This document shows, one piece after another, positions 4,141-62,859 of a stretch of 64,000 bases of DNA. The notes under the pieces were generated by a model. That model made no database searches and was not told where the DNA came from. It saw only the letters and a list, made by a program, of their open reading frames with translations. Source of the DNA: Candidatus Hermodarchaeota archaeon (GTDB lineage: Archaea > Asgardarchaeota > Hermodarchaeia > Hermodarchaeales > Hermodarchaeaceae); assembly GCA_016839805.1 (NCBI GenBank), contig JAEOTO010000015.1, positions 50,373 through 114,372 on the forward strand, read 5' to 3'. A program made the position numbers and the translations under genes. Positions within the stretch are counted from its first letter, which is position 1, and each line of letters begins with the position of its first letter.

Positions 4141-4971
4141 ATGCGAACCCAAGATATACTTCGTCAACTAAAACTACTCCCTAGCTATCTACGGCTTTCC
4201 CTTCTTCGTACTGCAGAAGACAAAATCCAGCTTTGGGGAGCTTTCGCCACCTCGATAATAAGCATCGTATTGTATGTGTTCTTCTGGAATGTTATCACAT
4301 ACCAAATCCCAGTACTCACAGGTGTTGGATGGGTAGTATGGGGTCGAGCGGAACTAACCTTCCTGATTGGTGTAACAGAAATTGCATGGGGGTTTGGTTC
4401 ATTTGCATATATGGGGCTCTGGGAAGTACACTGGTATATCACAGAGATTGGATTAGAAGAATTCCGGATTCGACCTGTAAGCTCTATCTACCAAATATTC
4501 GCTCAGAATTTTTGGGCAGGTGGACTGCTCCAAGTGGCTATAGGGGGAGCTATGCTTTTCCTCTCTACGATTACCTTCGGATTAGTAATAATTCCAATCA
4601 ATTTGGTATTAGGGATTTTCGCCCTCCTTATTGGACAAGCAGCCTTGTACATCCTTTGGGGCTGTCTATGCTGTTTGGCCTTTTGGATAGGACGAAATCA
4701 GGGTTTACTCGAGGTCTCTGATGCCGTGGAAATGAATTTTGCCCGAATGCCAATAGACATCATGCCACTTGGTGTTCAGTATTTCCTCACTTTCATCTTA
4801 CCAGTGATTTTCATCTCCACTATCCCAACTATGATTATGTTAGGTCAATTACCTCTAGGGTTAATATTGGTCTATTTTGTGATTGCAGGTGTTCTCGTTT
4901 TAGTATGGAGCGTCGTATTCAGATCTCTCTGGGCAAAGGGGGTAAAACGGTACCAACCTGTTGGAGGCTGA
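4141..4971 (+). CDS. ABC-2 family permease (DUF990-like)
   Basis: About six TM segments, RP and P.DI.P motifs; abuts the ATPase. Confidence 0.85.
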   Translation: MRTQDILRQLKLLPSYLRLSLLRTAEDKIQLWGAFATSIISIVLYVFFWNVITYQIPVLTGVGWVVWGRAELTFLIGVTEIAWGFGSFAYMGLWEVHWYITEIGLEEFRIRPVSSIYQIFAQNFWAGGLLQVAIGGAMLFLSTITFGLVIIPINLVLGIFALLIGQAALYILWGCLCCLAFWIGRNQGLLEVSDAVEMNFARMPIDIMPLGVQYFLTFILPVIFISTIPTMIMLGQLPLGLILVYFVIAGVLVLVWSVVFRSLWAKGVKRYQPVGG

Positions 4972-52231: not shown

Positions 52232-52585
52232 CTAAGAGATCATGGATTCGATACCCCGCAGGCGAAGGTAACTAGCCTGAAACCGCAACTCAGCTGCAAG
52301 CTGGGTGTCACCTGAATCCTCATAAATTTTCGCAAGTTTTTCCAAGGCTTGTGCAGCTTGTGAGAGATCTTCTGTACCCAGACTGTGTTGGACCTGCATC
52401 TCAAAACAGGCCAGTGCTTTCGATTCATAATCTCGTGGCGATTTGTGAGCCTTCCGGGCAAGTCGGGCGGCTCGTTGATAGAGTATTCCAGCTGTGTAAT
52501 AATCCTGTAAATTCCTACGTTTCCGTGCCTCACGTACATATCCGCGAATCTTCGCGACATACAATTCGCTGCTCAAGCTCTCCAC
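52232..52585 (-). CDS. Small helical-repeat (TPR/SNAP-like) protein
   Basis: AG.LY.RAA and AA...EKLAKIYE..G...A pattern. Confidence 0.55.
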   Translation of the reverse strand: MESLSSELYVAKIRGYVREARKRRNLQDYYTAGILYQRAARLARKAHKSPRDYESKALACFEMQVQHSLGTEDLSQAAQALEKLAKIYEDSGDTQLAAELRFQASYLRLRGIESMIS

Positions 52586-52715
52586 AACCCGACTAGCTCA
52601 CTCAGGTATATACCATATGAAACTCCGCATAAGTGTTTCCTTGTCTTCCCAGGTTCAAAATATGTACGTCATCAATTAAGATGAATCGTTGGGAGACAAG
52701 ACATCTTACTATATG

Positions 52716-54170
52716 TTAGATAAAGCTAAGTTGAGTAATCTGTTTAAGGAAAGGTTCTGGGTCCAGGGGAAACTTTGAGATAGGAAAATCAGCTCGGGTC
52801 GCTGCAAGTTCTGCAATATATTTTCCGGCACGAGGCTCCTCCCACCATGCTTCTCCAAACTCCTCAATTAGATTATGTTGAATCTGTGTCGTTCTCATTG
52901 AAGCCATTAAATAGCTGGGATTGTAGAGAATATGTTCGACGTTTATAGGATAGAGAAGCCAATAATTACCGGGGATTTCAATGTAAAAGCGACGAGTGAG
53001 ATTTTCCCATCGAGACGATGCTTGTTCAAAGGATAAGCTGTCTTTCCAGAAGGATAGCTTCATTAAGCTATTGGCAGCAAGAAAAACAGTGAAGAATAGT
53101 CCTGAGGCCTTACTACGGTCAAGACAATCATTGATGACTTTGGAGGGTAATCCAAGTTCTTTAGTGAGAAATAATCGGTTTTCAAGTAATCCATCAATGA
53201 GGAACGAGAAAGTTTCACTCACACTAAGGGGAACCGCGTGACGCTTCCAAAAAGGATCCTTCGGGTTAGCACAAAGTGCATGAATGCCATGTCCAAATTC
53301 ATGAAATATACTAATGAAGGCTCCTAATGGATTATATGGATTGTTAATAACTCGGATATCCTCTGGAATGCGAACCTCAACAATCACAGCATGAGGGCGT
53401 TTCAGAGGTCTGTCTTCAGAATCTATTTTTATCCCTTCAACGTTAAAACCAAGAGTCTTCAAAGTTTTTTTCACATGAACCAATGGATCAAGGCCCCTTA
53501 GGTGGTTGCTTAAAGGCTGATTAACATTATAGTGAAAAAATGCGTGATCATCTTGGGGACTAAATGGTTCACCTTTTATTTTCTGACAGTAATATTCGGC
53601 TGCTTGAAGAAAGGGTTTTCGTGCCCTCTCAGCCAGCTGAGTAATTAATCTTGTAAGTGTGGAATACTGGATTTGCTCTTTTTCTAAATAGATATCCAGT
53701 GGGTTTTCGTTGTAGCGGTCACAGATCTCTTGATGTGCCGTGAATCTTTGTTTTACATATGGAATGAGTTTTGGGGCTTGTTCAACGAAGGAGTCAAAAG
53801 CTACCTTGAGTGCTGACCAGTCTGTTGTTTGAATTCTAAATTTACCCCAAGTCAACAAGTTAACTGGCTTCCCATCAATTTGAACTTCCGGTGTTGAGAT
53901 TTTTTCATATTCTTTTGAAAGTTGAAGGATAAAGGGGAGTCCCATTGCATTCGCTAGATTTTCGAGCATTAATAAATAAAATGGACGTGGCTTAATTGAT
54001 TGTTCTAATGCGGTTTCAGCTAATTCTTTCCCTTTGATGGCTGTTTGAAATAATAAGGTTTCATCAAAGGGTAACCCAGCATATTGTTTGTACAACTGGT
54101 CCATTACCGTTGCATACAAATCCTCTGCTTGTTTTTCTATTTCGTCAACAGATAGCAAAAATGAAACCAC
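52716..54170 (-). CDS. Zinc metallopeptidase (M3/M32-like gluzincin)
   Basis: FHEFGHGIH plus downstream SETFS. Confidence 0.75.
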   Translation of the reverse strand: MVSFLLSVDEIEKQAEDLYATVMDQLYKQYAGLPFDETLLFQTAIKGKELAETALEQSIKPRPFYLLMLENLANAMGLPFILQLSKEYEKISTPEVQIDGKPVNLLTWGKFRIQTTDWSALKVAFDSFVEQAPKLIPYVKQRFTAHQEICDRYNENPLDIYLEKEQIQYSTLTRLITQLAERARKPFLQAAEYYCQKIKGEPFSPQDDHAFFHYNVNQPLSNHLRGLDPLVHVKKTLKTLGFNVEGIKIDSEDRPLKRPHAVIVEVRIPEDIRVINNPYNPLGAFISIFHEFGHGIHALCANPKDPFWKRHAVPLSVSETFSFLIDGLLENRLFLTKELGLPSKVINDCLDRSKASGLFFTVFLAANSLMKLSFWKDSLSFEQASSRWENLTRRFYIEIPGNYWLLYPINVEHILYNPSYLMASMRTTQIQHNLIEEFGEAWWEEPRAGKYIAELAATRADFPISKFPLDPEPFLKQITQLSFI

Positions 54171-54407
54171 TCCTATTTTACAATCAGCTCGTTGGCTTAA
54201 TTGAATATCGTATAGACTAAGACTTTGTCGATGTATTTAATTTTTCACTACTAGGCCTTGAAGAAAGGTATACTTGTCCATTGTCGAAGAATATTTTGAA
54301 TTATGTGCCTTCCTGCTTGCTTTCTTTGATGAGATATGGGCAGTTTTTGAAAACTACGGGTGACATGCTTACATTGCCCAATGTTAGGGCGTTTTAGACC
54401 GTTTTTA

Positions 54408-54440
54408 CCTATACTCGGTATTGTTGTGATTTATGTTTCT
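54408..54440. repeat. Dispersed repeat, copy 1
   Basis: CCTATACTCGGTATTGTTGTGATTTATGTTTCT; 29/33 identical to 54997-55029. Confidence 0.85.
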
Positions 54441-54474
54441 TGGTGTATTCCGTTTATCCTTCCTAGATAGATGG

Positions 54475-54936
54475 TCAAGTCTTAAGTTGAGATGCGATTT
54501 TCTTTCCGAAATCTTTGCATTTAGGAAACTCTCCCTCTGTGACTGGTCCCTTCATTCCATCAACCCTTATTGACAGACCAGAAGTTACTAGCTTCAATTT
54601 GGGAACCTTTTCGCTTATTCTCTTCTCCATTTTCTTCACAGACTTTTCGAAGTCTTCTCCCAGATAGGTGTCGAAAACAGCAACCCATTTCGCCTTTAAG
54701 TCAAGTTTGCCAAGTTTATCAATAAACTTATTAATACCTCTAACAGGTCCCCCAAAATGCGTTGGTGACCCTATCAATATTGCATCATAATCGGCTGCTT
54801 TTTTCGGATCAGCATCCTTGACATCACTGATGGCAATTTCTATTCCCTCGACTTCACCTATTCCCTCCATGATCTTTTCGGCTACAAGCTTTGTGTTGCC
54901 ATACTTTGTGTCATAAATGACAATAACCCTTACCAT
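54475..54936 (-). CDS. Flavodoxin
   Basis: YDTKYGNT, IGSPT, AVFDT. Confidence 0.9.
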   Translation of the reverse strand: MVRVIVIYDTKYGNTKLVAEKIMEGIGEVEGIEIAISDVKDADPKKAADYDAILIGSPTHFGGPVRGINKFIDKLGKLDLKAKWVAVFDTYLGEDFEKSVKKMEKRISEKVPKLKLVTSGLSIRVDGMKGPVTEGEFPKCKDFGKKIASQLKT

Positions 54937-54996
54937 TTCGTTCACCATTCATTATACCTATTCTCTAAGTTTTTTATGACTTGTTGTTTGTTCTTG

Positions 54997-55041
54997 CTTA
55001 TACTCGGCATTGTCGTGATTTGTGTTTCTAGCACGTGTTAG
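54997..55041. repeat. Dispersed repeat, copy 2
   Basis: CTTATACTCGG-N14-GTGTTTCTAGCACGTGTTAG. Confidence 0.85.
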
Positions 55042-55172
55042 CTTTTCCGTCAAGGTGTTAGTATGAGTGTTTCTTATCAATGGAAAACCGAAAAAATGTA
55101 AATTCGATTGTTAGGACTGAAAACTTTAAACATTCTGTGAATATGTTTGTGTGCTACGAATGGCTAGTTTAG

Positions 55173-55643
55173 GTGAAAATGGTGAACAAGACTCTGGTGG
55201 CTTTTGTTAGTAAAGGTGGAGCAACAAAAGAAGCATCTGAAATCATCGCTGATATTCTAAAAGAGAAGTACAAGTTTACAGTTGACCTAGTCGACTTAAA
55301 AAAACATTCACCAAACCTCGAAGAATACGACAATATTGTCATAGGAGCTGGGGTTCGAGTTGGAAAAGTCTATGGTAAAGCTTTGAAGTTTCTCAAGCAA
55401 GACTTCGGAGATAGAAAAGTAGCATTCTTTGTATGTTCTGGAGATGCTGGAGACCCCGAAAAGTATGAAGAGGCATGCACGAAATACATTATTGGTGTGT
55501 TGGCGAATTATCCACATGTCAAGACCGTTGCCACGGAAGCGTTTGGTGGTCGCATGAAAATGCTGGGGAAAACAATGTTTGACAAATTTGACCCAGCAAA
55601 GATTCGTACTTGGGCTGAAAACCTTGGAAGCAAGCTAACATAG
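55173..55643 (+). CDS. Flavodoxin domain protein (HemG/Flavodoxin_5-like)
   Basis: SKGGATKE, YDNIVIGAG, VAFFVCS, FGGR. Confidence 0.85.
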   Translation: MKMVNKTLVAFVSKGGATKEASEIIADILKEKYKFTVDLVDLKKHSPNLEEYDNIVIGAGVRVGKVYGKALKFLKQDFGDRKVAFFVCSGDAGDPEKYEEACTKYIIGVLANYPHVKTVATEAFGGRMKMLGKTMFDKFDPAKIRTWAENLGSKLT

Positions 55644-55714
55644 AAAAGAGAGAGCACTAACCTGAAATCATTGCGAATCCACACGGTGAGTGAAGCGTTA
55701 GGGAAAAAACATAA

Positions 55715-56728
55715 CTATTTTCGGGCAATGTCGAGTTCCATTGGTCCCATGAAGGTATCCATGGTTTGTGAACGGACGGATTTGAACCCAACTTTGCGCA
55801 TGGAATCTGCAATATGTCCCTGATCAATTCCAGCCTCCTGTCCCATTAAGGCCATAGATAGTAAGCTCAACACAATGGATTCTGGCTTTGTTCGTTCATG
55901 AGTCTGCCCAAAAGGGAAAATAGAAACAAAAACGCCACTTGGATTTAAGCTGTCAAATACTTTTTTCACAACAGAGTCGATGTCAGTGGCAAATTGGAGT
56001 ACACCAGACGCCAAGACTAGATCGTATCCCTCGCCGATAGAATCTTGGTTGAAGTCTCCGCCACGGACCTCCATTTTGTCCTCCATCCCATACTCCTTAA
56101 TGTACGCCTTGGCTTCCCGAACGACTGGTGGCAGGTCGAAGTTTACGCCGTTCATGCTAGGGTGTGCATCAACAATGGCCATCCCGATGAGGCCTGGCCC
56201 GCCACCCAGATCCAGCATCTTCCGAAATGACGGAAACTCTGGTAGTCCCAAAACAATCTCCACTGCTTCCTGAGCGTAACCAGCCTTCTCAGCGTCAGCC
56301 ATTAAGACAACTCCCTTAGTCACCATGTCCTCAGAGAACGAAGGCGTTTCCGGCTGAGGGGGAGGGCCTTCTCTTACCAGCTTAGTGAGGTTCTCAAAAA
56401 CTTCAGCGTCAGGCTGCATAAAGGGAAGTAGCCGTCCTAAGAATGTTGGGCCACCTTCAACCAGAAAAGCCTGTGCTTCGGGTGAGTTTTTATAAAGTTC
56501 ATTCTTTTTCTCTAAAAGGTTAATCGCCGCTAAAGCATCGAGGAATAGTCTCGTGTTATTTGGATGGGTGTCTATAGCCTTAGTCACGGCATCAGCTGAC
56601 TTTGGCTCGGAAAGCTCGTTAAACACCTTGAGCTCAATGCCCGCCATAAGCAGCTTCGACCGGATAGGTGCTATGAGCATCCCGTAAAGGTTCCCATAAC
56701 CAACCTTCACTTCAGGCAGCTTTTTCAT
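55715..56728 (-). CDS. O-methyltransferase with dimerisation domain
   Basis: LDLGGGPG, FDLP.V, GDF; N-terminal wHTH. Confidence 0.9.
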   Translation of the reverse strand: MKKLPEVKVGYGNLYGMLIAPIRSKLLMAGIELKVFNELSEPKSADAVTKAIDTHPNNTRLFLDALAAINLLEKKNELYKNSPEAQAFLVEGGPTFLGRLLPFMQPDAEVFENLTKLVREGPPPQPETPSFSEDMVTKGVVLMADAEKAGYAQEAVEIVLGLPEFPSFRKMLDLGGGPGLIGMAIVDAHPSMNGVNFDLPPVVREAKAYIKEYGMEDKMEVRGGDFNQDSIGEGYDLVLASGVLQFATDIDSVVKKVFDSLNPSGVFVSIFPFGQTHERTKPESIVLSLLSMALMGQEAGIDQGHIADSMRKVGFKSVRSQTMDTFMGPMELDIARK

Positions 56729-56873
56729 CGTATCTACCCCTTTCTTTCAAACACTTGTTCGGTGATAATTAATAAAACCTTATTTTTTATTTAATCGATC
56801 GATACTCATAATATCCATACAATATATGGTGAAAATCTAAATGTCAAAAGATTATCGTGTTAGCCCTGAGACT

Positions 56874-56918
56874 CTTATACACGGAAAGGTGCAGGAAGGT
56901 GTTTCTAACACGTGTTAG
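56874..56918. repeat. Dispersed repeat, copy 3
   Basis: CTTATACACGG-N14-GTGTTTCTAACACGTGTTAG; same spacing as copy 2 but a different core. Confidence 0.8.
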
Positions 56919-56973
56919 GTTTATTTCTTTGCTAAAATGACGGGCTTTTTAGGTAGAAGGAGAATCTTATACT

Positions 56974-57174
56974 ATGGGTTCAATAGTTTCTAAATTGTAT
57001 CAACGAATGCCACCTAGCAGGCTTCGTGATTTAACACGAACGGCGCTTTTACTTCGTCAGTTATCAGAAGCTGAAATGCTCCTTCGTGGTGTTGCTTGGA
57101 TTGAAATAGCCATGCGATTGGCTTCACACAACTCACTTGAGGTTGTATTATCGCAGAGGGAAAGAAATGAGTGA
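56974..57174 (+). CDS. Small protein, putative antitoxin-like partner
   Basis: 66 aa; stop overlaps the start of the downstream nucleotidyltransferase. Confidence 0.5.
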   Translation: MGSIVSKLYQRMPPSRLRDLTRTALLLRQLSEAEMLLRGVAWIEIAMRLASHNSLEVVLSQRERNE

Positions 57175-57772
57175 ACCACCTGCTTTTTTAGAGCTTTTAA
57201 GAATCGTTTCAGATTATTTTCATCAACGAAAGGTTCGGTATGTTATTGTTGGCGGGATTGCAGTTTCAGTCTATGGGTATCCACGGTCAACACAAGATAT
57301 TGATTTAATCATTGATCATGAAGAACTGGATGTCAATGACTTCTGCGATTTCCTTCGTACAAATCATTTTCAAGTCACCGAAATTGACCTACTTGCAGCG
57401 TTCAAGGAAAAATCACATGCAACAATTTTCCACCGAACACTTTCAACTAGACTTGATGTGAAAGGTAAATTCTCTATCGAGGACGAAGATACCTTGCATA
57501 CGGCGCTAGAATTGTCCATTGAAGATTTTAAAATAACCCTCGTGAGTCCTGAAGCTTTCATTATTCATAAGCTGAAGTTTGGCTCCTCACGTGATTTAGA
57601 AGATGCACTTGCCGTGTATATTCGGATGAAACCAAAACTTCTAACAAAAGAGTTACACAGGATTGCTCGATTAACAAAAGTAGAACCTCTGCTTTCTGAA
57701 TTGATTGAAATCGCTGATAAATCCATTAAGCAACAGAAAAAATGGGTGAATAGTCAACTAGGAAGAGACTAA
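57167..57772 (+). CDS. Nucleotidyltransferase (DUF6036/AbiEii-like)
   Basis: IVGG.A...YG.PR.TQDID, KL......D..DA. Confidence 0.82.
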   Translation: MSEPPAFLELLRIVSDYFHQRKVRYVIVGGIAVSVYGYPRSTQDIDLIIDHEELDVNDFCDFLRTNHFQVTEIDLLAAFKEKSHATIFHRTLSTRLDVKGKFSIEDEDTLHTALELSIEDFKITLVSPEAFIIHKLKFGSSRDLEDALAVYIRMKPKLLTKELHRIARLTKVEPLLSELIEIADKSIKQQKKWVNSQLGRD

Positions 57773-58076
57773 ATACAAAGAGGGTCTTTTTTCCCAGAAC
57801 TGCTACAGGTTAAGTGGTTATTACCAACATGTGTGATAGGGTATCTGTCCGACTAAGTGTTATTGTTGGCTAGCTTAGCCAAAGACCGGTGATGTTTTGT
57901 GGTTCTTGACCTCCCAAAATTCAGGATATCTAAACAGCAAATAAATTTAAACAGTCTGCGAATACGATTCAATGTGCGAGGAACGACGCATAACTTCTCG
58001 AATAGTTCCTCCTATACTCCAATTTTACCTCATCTACACGGAGAAGTTACTCCATTATCCTCCTAGAACCCGTCTG

Positions 58077-58526
58077 TTAAACTCCAAAAACGCTTGAATT
58101 ACTCAAGACTTTCAGAGCAGAGAATTCCTTGACTTTTTCCAACTCACCATCTGCGAGTGGGCCTTCCCGTCCTGTAACAAAAAAACTGACTGGTTTCATA
58201 GTAATATTAAAGCCGAGTTTCTTCAGCTTACTCTGTATCTTCTTGGCCGCGCTCCCCGCGAATCTCGAATCCATTTTGGTGTCGAAGGCGGCAGCTTTTT
58301 TCTCTCCAAATGATTGGCCTTCGATTTTTTTGAAAAACTGTTTCATCCCAGCTGACATATTCCATGCATGGGTTGGACTGCCAACAACAAACACGTTGTA
58401 TTCTTTGAGCTTTGTGACTTCGACATCAGTGACCTTGATTACGTCAGCATTGAGCACCTTCGCAATGCCCTTTGCAACCTGTTCGGTGTTTCCGAACTTG
58501 GTGTCATAGACTACAATGGCTTTCAT
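58077..58526 (-). CDS. Flavodoxin
   Basis: YDTKFGNT, VGSPTH, AAFDT. Confidence 0.9.
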   Translation of the reverse strand: MKAIVVYDTKFGNTEQVAKGIAKVLNADVIKVTDVEVTKLKEYNVFVVGSPTHAWNMSAGMKQFFKKIEGQSFGEKKAAAFDTKMDSRFAGSAAKKIQSKLKKLGFNITMKPVSFFVTGREGPLADGELEKVKEFSALKVLSNSSVFGV

Positions 58527-58608
58527 GAGGGATAGGCAAAATGGAATTAGTTATAAACGTTACGTGTGTCAAGAGCAAAAAACAGGTGTCTGTGCTTTTG
58601 TTAATTTG

Positions 58609-59646
58609 TCAGAATTGGTGGTTCTTCTTTTTTTGCAGGAATTCGCTTATCTTTTTTTTACCAGGGATTGCCCAAAGGGGGTAGTCTGGATCTAATAGGT
58701 CCGCTTCGATTAATAACTCGGCTAAGCATAGCCGGAAAGGATTGTTGCCCCAAACTACGCGGGGATAGGAGACATAATCTTCGACTGACCGGGTATAGGC
58801 TGCAGCTTTCACCTCATTAATAATAGGAACAGCAGTCCCAGGACGATCAATAATAAGTCCGATATCAACGAGCGGCTCGTTTGTAGTGATACTAGCCCAC
58901 CAAAAAGCATCAGGATACTTGTTGTATACTCCTTCTATGATCTCCTGACCTCTGGCTTTTGACTCATCATAACGAATCTTTAGCCGATATTCCATGTCTC
59001 CCAGTGCGAAGATATTATATCCTGCAAAGATGTGGACTCCTCCTCCTTCCTTAAGCTCACGCAGAATTTTTCGCACTCGTCTAGCGGTAAAACCAGTTCG
59101 TTCCACGATTTGTGAGACCGGCATTCGTCCGTCATCGAACAGACAACGAAGGACCTGTAATTGGCTCTTAGTAAAGTTGACTTTCTTCCCTCTTGAATGC
59201 ATATAAAAATCTGGGGGCATGTTGGGGAACAGAAACTCAATAGGTCTCACCTCAATCTCCGTTGCACTGCTAATATTTTGGAGAAACCGTTCAAATCCTA
59301 GAGTCTCGCTTGCCCCTGACACGACGGACCAATACTCATAGCGCATATCACCAGTACGATAAATCTCCACCACGCTGGGATGGGTCGCGATTTGTTCCAT
59401 GAACTCAATCACGTTTTCGGACCCATCGGTAAAGACGTAACCAGCCACATGTTCAGCATCCAGCATTGCTAAACTCACAATCACAGCGCATCCACCCAGA
59501 ACTTTTTGTGTGTGAAGTTTTTTAATTCGGTTTTTAATGGTATTTGGTGCCAAGTTGAATTTCTTTGCCAATGCCTGGTACGATATCCTACCATTCGCAT
59601 GTAATTCTAAAATCAGAGCGTAATCCACTGGGTCCAAGCAACTCAC
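58609..59646 (-). CDS. Double-module Lrp/AsnC-type regulator (paralog 3)
   Basis: LD..D..LI..L..N.R.SY..LA and a second L..D.R..V..I...G.....V.K.L..L HTH. Confidence 0.82.
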   Translation of the reverse strand: MSCLDPVDYALILELHANGRISYQALAKKFNLAPNTIKNRIKKLHTQKVLGGCAVIVSLAMLDAEHVAGYVFTDGSENVIEFMEQIATHPSVVEIYRTGDMRYEYWSVVSGASETLGFERFLQNISSATEIEVRPIEFLFPNMPPDFYMHSRGKKVNFTKSQLQVLRCLFDDGRMPVSQIVERTGFTARRVRKILRELKEGGGVHIFAGYNIFALGDMEYRLKIRYDESKARGQEIIEGVYNKYPDAFWWASITTNEPLVDIGLIIDRPGTAVPIINEVKAAAYTRSVEDYVSYPRVVWGNNPFRLCLAELLIEADLLDPDYPLWAIPGKKKISEFLQKKKNHQF

Positions 59647-60824: not shown

Positions 60825-61769
60825 TCAGAGACCTGCCTTAGTGAGCATTTCTTCTAATCGAATACGGTCAAGAAAATTGATAGAAACAACTCGGGGATAA
60901 GAGATAAAATCCTCGACTTGCCGGATAGAGGCCGCCGTTTTGATTTCACGAATGATTGGCACGCTCTTGCCGGGACGATCTATGAGTAATCCCACGTCAA
61001 TAATTGGCTCATTTGTGGTCACGCTGGCCCACCAAAATTCATGGGGATACTTCTTGTAAATCCAATCGATAATCTCTTGCCCTGTCTTTTTTGATGCGTC
61101 ATAATGAATTTTTAACCGATATTCCATATCTCCTAAGGCAAAAACATCATATGCCATAGCGAAATGGACGCCTCCTCCTTCTTCTAGATCGCGAAGGATT
61201 TTTCGCACTCGTCTAGGAGTGAGCCTCGTTCGTTGGGCGATTTGCGAGACGGGCATTCGACAATCTTCAAACAAACAGCGTAATACACGTAATTGGTTCC
61301 GCGTAAAGGTAACCTTCTGCCCCCTATCACTCATGAAATAATTGGGTGGTTGGTGGGGGAAATAAAATACAATGGGCCTTATCTCCACTTCGAGTACATG
61401 ATCAAGGCCTTTAAGAAATCTTTGGAATCCTAGGGTTTCACTCGCTCCCGCTACTAGAGCCCAAAATTCATAGCGCCTATCACTGGTTCGGTAAATTTCA
61501 ATGACTATTGGCTGCGTAGCTATCTGTTCCATGAATTCGATGACTTTCTCTGAGCCATCAGTGGAAATATACCCCGCCACATCTTCAACACCAAGCATTT
61601 CCTTGCTCAATATCACTTCGAACCTACGGATCACTTTCTGTTGGCGAAGCTTGTTGATCCGGTTTTTCACAGTATTCGGTGAGACCGAAAGTTTCCGTGC
61701 GAGGGCCTGATATGACATTCTACAATTACCTGACAATTCACAGATCAAGGCATAATCCAATGAATCCAA
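60825..61769 (-). CDS. Double-module Lrp/AsnC-type regulator (paralog 2)
   Basis: Two AsnC-type HTH modules; paralog of its neighbours. Confidence 0.82.
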   Translation of the reverse strand: MDSLDYALICELSGNCRMSYQALARKLSVSPNTVKNRINKLRQQKVIRRFEVILSKEMLGVEDVAGYISTDGSEKVIEFMEQIATQPIVIEIYRTSDRRYEFWALVAGASETLGFQRFLKGLDHVLEVEIRPIVFYFPHQPPNYFMSDRGQKVTFTRNQLRVLRCLFEDCRMPVSQIAQRTRLTPRRVRKILRDLEEGGGVHFAMAYDVFALGDMEYRLKIHYDASKKTGQEIIDWIYKKYPHEFWWASVTTNEPIIDVGLLIDRPGKSVPIIREIKTAASIRQVEDFISYPRVVSINFLDRIRLEEMLTKAGL

Positions 61770-61902: not shown

Positions 61903-62859
61903 CTACAGTCCCGCGTCACGTAGGATTTTTTCTAAGTGGTCTCTGAAAGGTATTCCATATTCCACCACAAGAGGATAGTTAATAAAATCCTCAATTTCCT
62001 TCACAAATGGCGCTGCTTTGATTTCACGAATTATAGGGACGCTTTTACCAGGTCGATCAATAAGAAATCCTACATCAACAATTGGCTCATTCGTAACCAC
62101 ACCAGTCCACCAGAATTCAGTCGGATACTTTTTGAATAACCATCCCACGAGATCCCAACCTGTGATTTGAGTTTCATCAAAGCGGATAATGACTCGATAT
62201 TGCAAATCCCCTAGAGCAAAGGGATCGTAATCTACCGCGAAATGTACACCTCCCCCTTCTTCTAACTCGCGAAGGATTTTTCGCACCCGTCGAGTGGTGA
62301 AACCAGTACATTTGGCGATTTGTGCAACGGGCATACGGGCATCTTTAGTCAAACACCGTAACACTTGTAATTGGGTTCGAGTAAAAGTGACCTTCTTTCC
62401 CCTTGTATTATAGTGATAATTTGGTGGAAAGTTGGGATACTGCAAAACCACGGGTTTAATATTCACATCAATTACACCCTCTCGTCCCTCTAGGAACCCT
62501 ATGAACCCAAGTGTATCATGTGCCCCACTTATAGTAGCCATAACCTCATATCGCCTATCTGAGGCGCGAACAATCGTAAGAACGATAGGTTGTTTAGCTA
62601 TTTGTTCCATGAACGCAATCAGATTCTCGGATCCATCAGTGGTAATAATTCCACGGACAATCTCAGCGTCAAGCATTTCCATGCTTACCATTACTACAAA
62701 ATCAAGGATGACTTTTTGTTGGCGAAGCTTATTGATCCGGTTCTTCACCGTATTCGGTGATAGTCCTAATTTCTGTGCAAGGGCGCTGTATGATATTCGA
62801 GCATTCCCCATTAATTTACAGAGCACGGCCCAATCCACTGGATCCAATCCACTCACCAC
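61903..62859 (-). CDS. Double-module Lrp/AsnC-type regulator (paralog 1)
   Basis: Two AsnC-type HTH modules; paralog of its neighbours. Confidence 0.82.
   Translation of the reverse strand: MVSGLDPVDWAVLCKLMGNARISYSALAQKLGLSPNTVKNRINKLRQQKVILDFVVMVSMEMLDAEIVRGIITTDGSENLIAFMEQIAKQPIVLTIVRASDRRYEVMATISGAHDTLGFIGFLEGREGVIDVNIKPVVLQYPNFPPNYHYNTRGKKVTFTRTQLQVLRCLTKDARMPVAQIAKCTGFTTRRVRKILRELEEGGGVHFAVDYDPFALGDLQYRVIIRFDETQITGWDLVGWLFKKYPTEFWWTGVVTNEPIVDVGFLIDRPGKSVPIIREIKAAPFVKEIEDFINYPLVVEYGIPFRDHLEKILRDAGL

Follow-up and report, generated by a model that had tools for sequence, protein, structure and literature searches.

Putative recombination sites of a cassette array at a single chromosomal locus in a Candidatus Hermodarchaeota archaeon

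Within a 64,000-nucleotide stretch of DNA from a Candidatus Hermodarchaeota archaeon (hereafter the window; contig 50, positions 50373–114372, of a 2.31-Mb assembly in 50 contigs that is 87% complete), an island of small accessory genes lies between a conserved 117-residue gene on the left and a flavodoxin gene followed by a winged-helix regulator gene on the right. The island consists of short packets, carrying a peptidase, flavodoxins, an O-methyltransferase and a nucleotidyltransferase, which are bounded by copies of a short, co-oriented repeat ending in an 8-bp core. Both the gene content and the promoters look archaeal. We favor, with moderate confidence, the interpretation that a recombinase-driven cassette array, now largely fossil, occupies one chromosomal spot, with these repeats as its attachment (crossover) sites. 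The Asgard archaea are closer to eukaryotes than any other known group, and little is known, to our knowledge, about gene gain and exchange among them.

Repeats and packets at the island

The repeat is described by the pattern YTATACWCGG-N14-RTGTTTCT, which matches the window at 54409–54440, 54998–55029 and 56875–56906, each time on the + strand; chance expectation was judged on 100 shuffles, which gave no match. The same 49-nt family was recovered independently by a repeat finder, and copies 1 and 2 are 69% identical over 49 nt. A preliminary description of the window had listed these three copies and had reported both arms and their spacing to be the same in copies 2 and 3, around a variable core. 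The shared arms and spacing are indeed present, and the intervening sequences do differ, but the difference reflects two or more arm types that are conserved across species (type A, ...CGGCATTGTCGTGATTTG...; type B, ...CGGAAAGTCGTAGGAAAG...), not free variation. In what follows, core refers to the 8-bp RTGTTTCY at the right end of the site. The left arm stays with the packet on its left, and the next packet starts to the right of the core. The arms belong to types A, A′, B, C and D, most of which carry TATAC 16–17 nt from the core, and all sites have the same orientation. Besides the three pattern matches, the island contains three further cores that had been missed, i.e., those of the primary site beside the 117-aa gene, of a 45-nt mini unit, and of a degenerate type D site (Table 1).

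The only dyad at the sites is a 14-bp palindrome without a spacer, to the right of the core. As reported earlier, this palindrome, CTA(G/A)CACGTGTTAG, lies 3′ of copies 2 and 3 (55028–55041 and 56905–56918). The GTTRRRY match that had been pointed out at its end is found in copy 3 only, and the joints described below are not located there. The palindrome is confined to this locus in a scan of the whole assembly, and its half-site CGTGTTAG is not enriched elsewhere in the genome. The genome-wide scan that the preliminary description had suggested returned just the same three pattern matches, all within 2.5 kb, with the three additional cores at the same locus. With three copies in the whole assembly, the repeat is therefore real but does not form a dispersed family. 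Among 41 related genomes covered by the pattern search, true matches occur in the same genus only, on contigs of the orthologous locus.

The mini unit is composed of a palindrome half, CTTTTCCGTCAAGGTGTTAGTATGA, and the core, and every copy of it is placed between two cores, like an empty cassette. In addition to the copy in the window (55030–55074), copies lie in related loci at L046 1906–1950, L009 5831–5875 and 11031–11079, L012 ~4360–4408, and L014 1840–1789. It recurs in G010 (95% identity), twice in G006 (88% and 93%), and also in G002 and G008; the identity of 88–95% is seen between species whose core DNA (the conserved chromosomal DNA, as distinct from the site core) is ~70% identical.

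The genes of the island and of its flanks are listed in Table 1. The SNAP match of the 117-aa gene (3.9e-5) is under the Pfam cut-off. The likely start of flavodoxin A is the ATG at 54936, which is preceded by GGTGA. On the right side, the flank from 58077 to 59646 is syntenic and 75.5% identical in G001, a core-like identity, and flavodoxin C is 72–73% identical in G003 and G004. Three paralogous regulators are found at the right edge of the island (58609–59646, 60825–61769 and 61903–62859), each of ~315–345 aa with two winged-helix (HTH_24/AsnC-type) domains, and one of them is syntenic in relatives; they are candidate binders of the CTAACACGTGTTAG boxes described below. PADLOC gave no match for the two toxin–antitoxin-like pairs.

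Table 1. Features of the island and its flanks, in window coordinates (ORF, open reading frame)
Feature	Position	Strand	Remarks
117-aa gene, left-flank anchor	52232–52585	−	ORF; weak SNAP/TPR-like Pfam match
Primary site, type C arm	52607–52640	+	core GTGTTTCC at 52633–52640; same in 13 congeneric genomes
Packet 1	52641–54440		M3-like peptidase gene 52716–54170 (−); closes with repeat copy 1
Repeat copy 1, type A′ arm	54408–54440	+	core ATGTTTCT at 54433–54440; pattern match
Packet 2	54441–55029		flavodoxin A 54475–54948 (−); closes with repeat copy 2
Repeat copy 2, type A arm	54997–55029	+	core 55022–55029; pattern match
Mini unit, 45 nt	55030–55074	+	palindrome half AGCACGTGTTAG first; second core GTGTTTCT (55067–55074) last
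Packet 3	55075–56906		recombinase-promoter relic, flavodoxin B, O-methyltransferase, long-element stump, copy 3
Recombinase-promoter relic of packet 3	55122–55131		AACTTTAAAC, then ATGTTTGTGTGC
Flavodoxin B	55173–55643	+	packet 3
O-methyltransferase	55715–56728	−	packet 3
Repeat copy 3, type B arm	56874–56906	+	core 56899–56906; after last ~20 nt of long element; pattern match
Packet 4	56907–57906		nucleotidyltransferase packet; opens with AACACGTGTTAG
66-aa ORF	56974–57174	+	packet 4; overlaps nucleotidyltransferase
DUF2204/DUF6036 nucleotidyltransferase	57137–57772	+	packet 4; Pfam matches
Long conserved element of packet 4	57778–57873		precedes degenerate type D site
Degenerate type D site	57874–57906		core GTGGTTCT at 57899–57906; closes packet 4
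Right-flank class y with decayed recombinase gene start	57907–58076	+	promoter-like AAATTTAAAC at 57943–57952
Flavodoxin C	58077–58526	−	conserved right flank
Regulator, two winged-helix domains	58609–59646	−	conserved right flank

Joints and reassortment among relatives

The joints were mapped by BLAST of the 50–62 kb part of the window against the corresponding locus of each relative. The loci of the relatives are one orthologous locus, in which the left flank ends with the 117-aa gene and the right flank begins with flavodoxin C and/or the winged-helix regulator. An ortholog of the 117-aa gene is present in 13 of the 14 congeneric genomes (64–79% amino-acid identity), and in all 13 holders the type C site, comprising TATATAC, 17 nt ending in GCATAA, and the core, is situated just upstream of its start. 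The primary site of the window lies 22–55 nt upstream of that start. The position of the TATATAC box, where the TATA box of a leaderless transcript of the 117-aa gene would sit, suggests a promoter role. Conservation of the type C site runs to the last base of the core, beyond which at least six unrelated continuations are found.

Between these two flanks the gene content varies, as the preliminary description had anticipated, and gains, losses and reorderings fall exactly at the core. The homology block containing flavodoxin A ends at 55029 in G011, at 55030 in G001, at 55022 (the first base of the core) in G006, and at 54996 in G013, and the blocks at copy 3 end at 56906–56908 in four genomes. 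The nucleotidyltransferase packet is matched from core to core, 56899 to 57906, in contig C71 of G010 (83%) and to 57924 in contig C134 of G004 (79%). On its left stands arm B in the window; in G010 the place is taken by arm C, the site beside the 117-aa gene, and in G004 by arm D. Likewise, the peptidase packet is 94% identical to that of G013 (contig C14), where it stands behind a type D arm and not at the site of the 117-aa gene. The O-methyltransferase is 77% identical to a copy in G006 that is placed differently. In G005, a 1.5-kb segment comprising a recombinase relic, one gene, the long element (see below) and a type B site is present between flanks that abut in G006, G011 and G014, and in G003 two such recombinase-relic segments stand in tandem. 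Elsewhere in these loci the variable content also includes a catalase, a PIN toxin pair, a Flavodoxin_2 quinone-reductase-like protein, a saccharopine dehydrogenase and membrane proteins.

The sequences to the right of the core fall into recurrent classes: S4 and y, both of which lead into the start of a recombinase gene, x, z (which opens with AACACGTGTTAG), p (the peptidase packet), and others. Flank z is found behind arms A, B, C and D and behind the mini unit; flank x, behind arms A, B and C; flank S4, the recombinase-promoter class, behind arms B and C and the mini unit; and flank p, behind arm C (in the window and in G009) and arm D (in G013). The homologous stretch of the class y flank is 73% identical in G003. 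Such free combination of left and right sides at one 8-bp point is predicted by site-specific exchange, and is not predicted by homologous recombination between repeats with unrelated cores. Class x was considered as the original right side of the target and was rejected: its conservation extends over ~45 nt only, beyond which each genome has a different sequence, and it is therefore better read as the start of a packet.

The packets are also more similar between genomes than the DNA beside them. With the adjacent core DNA of the window (34–52.2 kb) as the baseline, and with non-coding parts counted in the packet identities, the flavodoxin A packet is 94% identical in G013 (core DNA 85–88%, one short piece 65%), 88% in G001 (core DNA 67–79%), 86% in G006 (core DNA 64–80%; mini unit 88% and 93%), and 91% in G011 (core DNA 68–78%), and the nucleotidyltransferase packet is 83% identical in G010 (core DNA 67–75%; mini unit 95%). 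Packet identities of 83–94% against 64–88% for core DNA fit exchange between species after their divergence.

Assembled contigs of four sediment metagenomes, rather than raw reads, were read for additional joints. In X1, the probable source sample, one contig links the end of a 90%-identical nucleotidyltransferase gene and 150 other letters to position 55022, the first base of the core of copy 2. A contig of X5 joins position 56906, the last base of the core of copy 3, to 54320, and in X3 a type D arm stands directly before 52632, as in G013. The joints and loose ends of these contigs, at the core edges 56906, 55022 and 52632, fit alternative natural packet orders, and they weigh lightly because they are contigs only, some of the joints are short-sided, and no circle junction is among them. 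In three marine-sediment metagenomes from three studies, the flavodoxin A packet (54410–54982) has summed contig depths of ~20–550, with contigs that are 90–99% alike, and the same three metagenomes cover the remainder of the island poorly or not at all; the flavodoxin A packet, or the gene, is widespread beyond this genome. The small shares of words matched in runs X2–X18 were rejected as evidence of habitat, as they stem mainly from the flavodoxin A and peptidase packets.

We note that contigs end in or beside the locus in at least seven relatives (G004:C137, G009:C91, G012:C41, G014:C6, G005:C340, G002:C79, and G013:C14 and C367), and that the contig of G012 stops one base past the core. 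These contig ends suggest strain heterogeneity or repeats that break assemblies; since the locus breaks assemblies, the content of the array is probably under-reported in metagenome-assembled genomes (MAGs). A complete catalase gene (Pfam E 2e-186) lies inside the array at L009 3551–5008 (G006) and at L012 6349–7191 (G002), and a gene for a quinone-reductase-like flavoprotein lies at L015 6835–7410. Together with the flavodoxins, these genes suggest that oxygen and redox defense is strain-variable cargo in presumed anaerobes.

Recombinase remnants and the long arm element

The statement of the preliminary description that no recombinase lies in the window is true for intact genes, but the starts of two tyrosine recombinase relics are present (~55122–55170 and ~57943–58076). 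Many cores are followed, 45–95 nt to the right, by the promoter box AACTTTAAAC, and an ORF starts ~12–30 nt beyond the box. The relic ORFs, which share the pattern MF.CAM...LLE(E/D)FLLNP..T...Y...., start ~70–90 nt right of the core, behind this conserved box, in at least eight genomes. N-terminal relics are found at 11 aligned places in six genomes (G000, G002, G003, G005, G006 and G008), plus G012, and such pieces lie beside sites in G003 (three matches), G005, G008, G006, G012, and the window (~57970–58095). The relic of G006 retains 64 intact residues that match the phage-integrase SAM-like N-terminal domain (Phage_int_SAM_4; 3e-5, Pfam). The relic of the window (~57970–58076) gives a tblastn-type match to that of G006 with an E value of 7e-4 and contains one TAG and two TAA codons, and the shorter remnant (55122–55170) precedes flavodoxin B. 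In the alignment, the relics break off at different codons, and C-terminal recombinase pieces were found in none of the loci.

What had been taken for a degenerate fourth copy of the repeat at 58011 is no copy of the motif; it sits in diverged codons of the N-terminal relic. By contrast, the two boxes TTATCCTTCCTAGA (54454–54467) and TTATCCTCCTAGA (58055–58067) do lie a few bases past flavodoxin stop codons, as described, and differ by one inserted base. The box at 58055 belongs to the recombinase relic, its codons being aligned with those of other relics, and for this reason flavodoxins A and C seem to derive from one arrangement, in which a flavodoxin gene converges on a decaying recombinase gene.

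An intact copy of the linked recombinase was found in none of 19 genomes of the family, nor was the catalytic domain R..HxxR..Y found in the linked gene. A metagenome pattern scan for an intact element returned only contigs matching G006 and chance matches in GC-rich bacteria, and a word-index protein search yielded no longer relatives of the relic. A HMMER scan of public proteins found full-length relatives at 42–46% identity. Among proteins from public run assemblies, P0006 shares 83% identity with the relic family where the two overlap and includes the catalytic RHR-Y half; for P0014, a 127-aa Logan protein, the gene call reads through the core-adjacent y flank. On NCBIfam models, the best match of the relic and of its full-length relatives is archaeal XerA, at 72–118 bits against a cut-off of 220 bits. 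Against the integron-integrase model (cut-off 265 bits), the relic family scores 36.9 bits and a paralog on contig 24 scores 51.2 bits; the relics keep N-terminal parts only, in which an IntI-specific domain cannot be inspected. Longer, though truncated, copies of the recombinase family with the AACTTTAAAC box and with no RTGTTTCY upstream are also present at L028 (G004:C157, 1474–1968) and L029 (G006:C34, ~1500–1750, − strand).

The paralog on contig 24 of G000 (288–1367, − strand, 287 nt from a contig end) is an intact tyrosine recombinase of 359 aa with a zinc-ribbon-like CxxC...CxxC tail at its C-terminus, and it is 39% identical to the G004:C157 fragment. It was rejected as the local enzyme: none of the GTGTTTC, CACGTG and TATAC boxes occurs within 4 kb of it, and a CGAAGAC box ~60 nt upstream of the gene matches the core of another site family of this genome. 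A role as a helper in trans is possible. The other family, GTGAAACAAATCATCTTTCAC followed ~30 nt later by a GTCTTCGA core, has 11 copies on contigs 1, 19, 20, 39 and 42 and none at the present locus. Like the sites described here, its members are polar repeats at the joints of swappable packets, for which the contig-24 recombinase, with a core-like box upstream of its gene, is the candidate enzyme. The two families are unrelated in sequence, and that of the present locus differs in being restricted to a single locus and in having recombinase remnants physically linked to it.

Sites of types B and D form the 3′ end of a longer conserved element of 118–151 nt (~130 nt in most copies). This long element opens with GAGGGTCTTTTTATCCCAGAAC and contains three boxes, each 1–3 mismatches from CTAACACGTGTTAG, and wherever flank z is present a fourth, perfect copy of CTAACACGTGTTAG follows to the right of the core. 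The window holds one full but diverged long element (57778–57906) and one stump (56856–56906). In an alignment of 12 long elements, RNAalifold gives a consensus energy of −2.35 kcal/mol and no compensatory pairs, and the boxes decay independently of one another. Given the lack of consensus structure and of compensatory change, and the independent decay of the boxes, the long element is a DNA element with putative protein-binding boxes rather than an RNA. In G006 (L009 6966–7400), a recombinase-bearing packet follows a long arm, in the order arm boxes, core, promoter, and integrase gene, a junction that is laid out like a complex attP.

A putative cassette array and its alternatives

In the interpretation that we favor, a site-specific system would have stacked small packets of accessory genes, in one site orientation, just upstream of the conserved 117-aa gene, and the chromosomal copy of the site would overlap the promoter region of that gene. 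Some packets would be small integrative elements, with a promoter and a XerA-like recombinase gene at the start and, at the end, a long arm of ~120–135 nt, site included, bearing three or four copies of the palindrome CTAACACGTGTTAG; these elements, and packets without an integrase, would have been inserted successively by a XerA-like tyrosine recombinase that exchanges strands in or beside the core. A circular packet with one site could thereby integrate at whichever site is already resident, and two co-oriented sites could recombine so that packets are removed, change their order, or are exchanged between species. The window would then read, from left to right, as the primary site, the peptidase packet, the flavodoxin A packet, the mini unit, a packet with a recombinase stump, flavodoxin B and the methyltransferase, the nucleotidyltransferase packet with its long arm, and the recombinase relic at flavodoxin C. 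The sites and their confinement to one locus, the exact joints, the reassortment of left and right sides, the excess of packet identity over that of core DNA, and the recombinase relics are observed, whereas the action of this recombinase on the core, the position of strand exchange, and any present-day activity are inferred. Since none of the genomes sampled has a linked recombinase gene that is not truncated, the array must be either a fossil or dependent on a paralog acting in trans.

Several observations weigh against this interpretation. Neither 15 genomes of the genus nor JGI metagenome contigs nor IMG/VR yielded an intact recombinase gene next to a site, and no circular excision joint was seen in the assembled contigs of the four sediment metagenomes, where some joints are short-sided. 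The core is not surrounded by inverted core-type binding arms with a 6–8-bp spacer, as would be expected of a classical tyrosine-recombinase site, and the bases adjacent to the core are arm-specific while the more distant TATAC box is conserved. The TATAC box of type C probably doubles as the promoter of the 117-aa gene, and some of its conservation would then be regulatory. Stronger selection on flavodoxin could account for part of the excess in packet identity, and the comparison of empty with occupied sites rests on short flanks, class x being conserved for ~45 nt.

Alternatively, the repeats could be cis-regulatory modules, with TATAC as a TATA box, CTAACACGTGTTAG as the operator of a local regulator (e.g., the product of 58609–59646), and the joints produced by homologous recombination. 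Every copy is intergenic; in every genome the type C box precedes the start of the 117-aa gene by 22–28 nt, a spacing typical of leaderless promoters in archaea; type A lies 49–62 nt upstream of flavodoxin A in G000, G011 and G001; a perfect 14-bp palindrome is a typical dimer operator; and relatives have, next to the island, a regulator gene that possesses two paralogs. We nevertheless consider this explanation unlikely. The motif and the palindrome are absent from the rest of the genome, and a type B copy in G003 sits between the ends of two convergent genes, a position that requires no promoter. Moreover, homologous recombination would place breakpoints across the shared 30–130 nt, whereas arms A, B, C and D all join at the same 8 bp, and recombinase genes that start beside the sites are left unexplained. 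The promoter and recombination-site readings are compatible in that a site can contain a promoter, and the TATAC box and the palindrome probably do act in part as regulatory elements, but such a role leaves the joints unexplained. Local tandem duplication of flavodoxin genes with their flanks, of which the repeats would be functionless leftovers, is a more remote alternative still, and we give it very little credence. Three flavodoxin paralogs do lie within 4 kb, A and C are similar in DNA inside the gene and carry a TTATCCT(T)CCTAGA box past both stops, and copies 1 and 2 are alike over the 49 nt noted above. However, the arm types are conserved across species and the adjacent flanks are not, the same packet stands behind different arms in different genomes, and the sites also bound packets that contain no flavodoxin (peptidase, nucleotidyltransferase pair, catalase, PIN pair).

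The preliminary description had read the repeats as recombination sites of a gene capture system; this general reading is supported, but the families that it named (integron, dif module, and repetitive extragenic palindromes or miniature inverted-repeat transposable elements, REP/MITE) are not. A true integron, or a cluster of attC sites lacking an integron integrase (CALIN), would account for co-oriented sites between small accessory packets and for the end of copy 3, where GTTAGGT fits GTTRRRY, and Asgard MAGs are reported to contain both (Ghaly et al. 2022, PMC9668308). Yet type A and A′ sites fold as single-stranded DNA, on either strand, no better than shuffles (z −0.19 to −0.36), a type B copy with its flanks is only marginal (z −1.7 to −1.8), and the 12 aligned long elements are without compensatory changes. 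In addition, the joint coincides with the end of GTGTTTCT, and the GTT of GTTAG comes 5 nt farther to the right; most right flanks lack GTTRRRY, which is present only where flank z follows and starts 5 nt right of the joint; the recombinase relatives score 37–51 bits against the cut-off of 265; both strands carry genes; and the array contains several recombinase relics. An integron thus appears extremely improbable, and we attach equally slight probability to a dispersed repeat of REP/MITE type or to stacked transposon ends. The elements are short, non-coding and repeated in one orientation, as such repeats would be, but the three full matches and three further cores occupy a single locus, terminal inverted repeats and target-site duplications are lacking, and there is neither a transposase or TnpB gene nor an Rfam match. 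A dif or pdif module (a 28-bp site with inverted arms of ~11 bp and a 6–8-bp spacer) was rejected on the lack of an 11-6-11 dyad around the core and the common orientation of all sites, pdif sites being alternate in orientation.

Other candidates were rejected as well. For a structured RNA or riboswitch, Rfam gave nothing at gathering scores in the whole window and nothing at E ≤ 1 in 52400–58300, and covariation is lacking. C/D-box small RNAs, TnpB omega-RNAs and IS110 bridge-RNAs are at odds with the lack of boxes, of a nuclease or transposase gene, and of conserved structure. A split integrase of SSV type does not fit a core that lies upstream of the start codon or relics that are cut at varied points, and since none of the loci holds a C-terminal piece, int(C), this type is ruled out. 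A scan for bacterial-type promoters and terminators is uninformative for an archaeon.

Compared with known systems, the putative cassette array resembles integron arrays in its co-oriented sites, its small packets whose content and order vary among close relatives, its joint at a fixed point of the site, its primary site beside a fixed chromosomal position, and its toxin–antitoxin-like pairs as cargo. It differs in that the site lacks the form of a folded imperfect palindrome and is not joined at G|TT of GTTRRRY, that the site travels on the promoter-proximal side of many packets, that genes occur on either strand, probably with promoters of their own, and that the XerA-like recombinase gene is itself a packet inside the array, present several times instead of once beside an attI. 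The array is likewise comparable to the tandem accretion of integrative elements, as in genomic-island hotspots and in integrative mobile elements exploiting Xer (IMEX) at dif (CTX/TLC/VGJ): the target is conserved in relatives, a short identical direct repeat of the core surrounds each segment, an integrase gene is adjacent, the junctions between neighbors are attP-like, with the long palindrome element resembling the arm of a complex attP, and the integrases decay after insertion. Here, however, the segments measure 0.045–3 kb and are mostly without an integrase, and packets lacking one reappear behind other arms elsewhere, which is more like cassette exchange. Further, the target is an intergenic promoter region and not a tRNA gene or dif, and the N-terminus of the relic opens with the SAM-like core-binding domain, with no separate arm-binding domain recognizable. 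Finally, archaeal integrases, such as those of XerA/dif, of the SSV type (PMC7253208) and of the SNJ2 type (PMC5861418), are also tyrosine recombinases, XerA being the best NCBIfam match, and truncated N-terminal gene pieces beside a site recall the int(N) of the SSV type. They differ in that the scores obtained here are far below the XerA cut-off, the site lies upstream of the gene, and a dif-like 11-6-11 dyad is missing.

We tentatively propose, as a possibility of less than even weight, that the locus represents a self-contained archaeal gene-capture system independent of integrons, with a packet-borne recombinase derived from XerA, promoter-bearing packets, and an unfolded, double-stranded RTGTTTCY site, which would constitute a second site family in Candidatus Hermodarchaeum, would link site and enzyme physically, and would move redox genes and toxin–antitoxin-like pairs between species. 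The locus behaves as a cassette array with a different site and a XerA-like recombinase, and so points to a second, independent route by which archaea capture genes in modular form. As the other site family of the genus belongs to a system of the same kind, the present one is a second such family, here confined to a single locus with the remnants attached to the sites, and recombinase remnants directly beside the sites offer a concrete and testable enzyme–site pair. The cargo, comprising flavodoxins, catalase, the quinone-reductase-like flavoprotein, the O-methyltransferase and the toxin–antitoxin-like pairs, suggests that tolerance of oxygen and redox stress is partly mobile and strain-variable in these sediment anaerobes. 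If this interpretation is true, oxygen and redox defense genes (flavodoxins, catalase and quinone reductase) would have been moved between species of an anaerobic Asgard genus.

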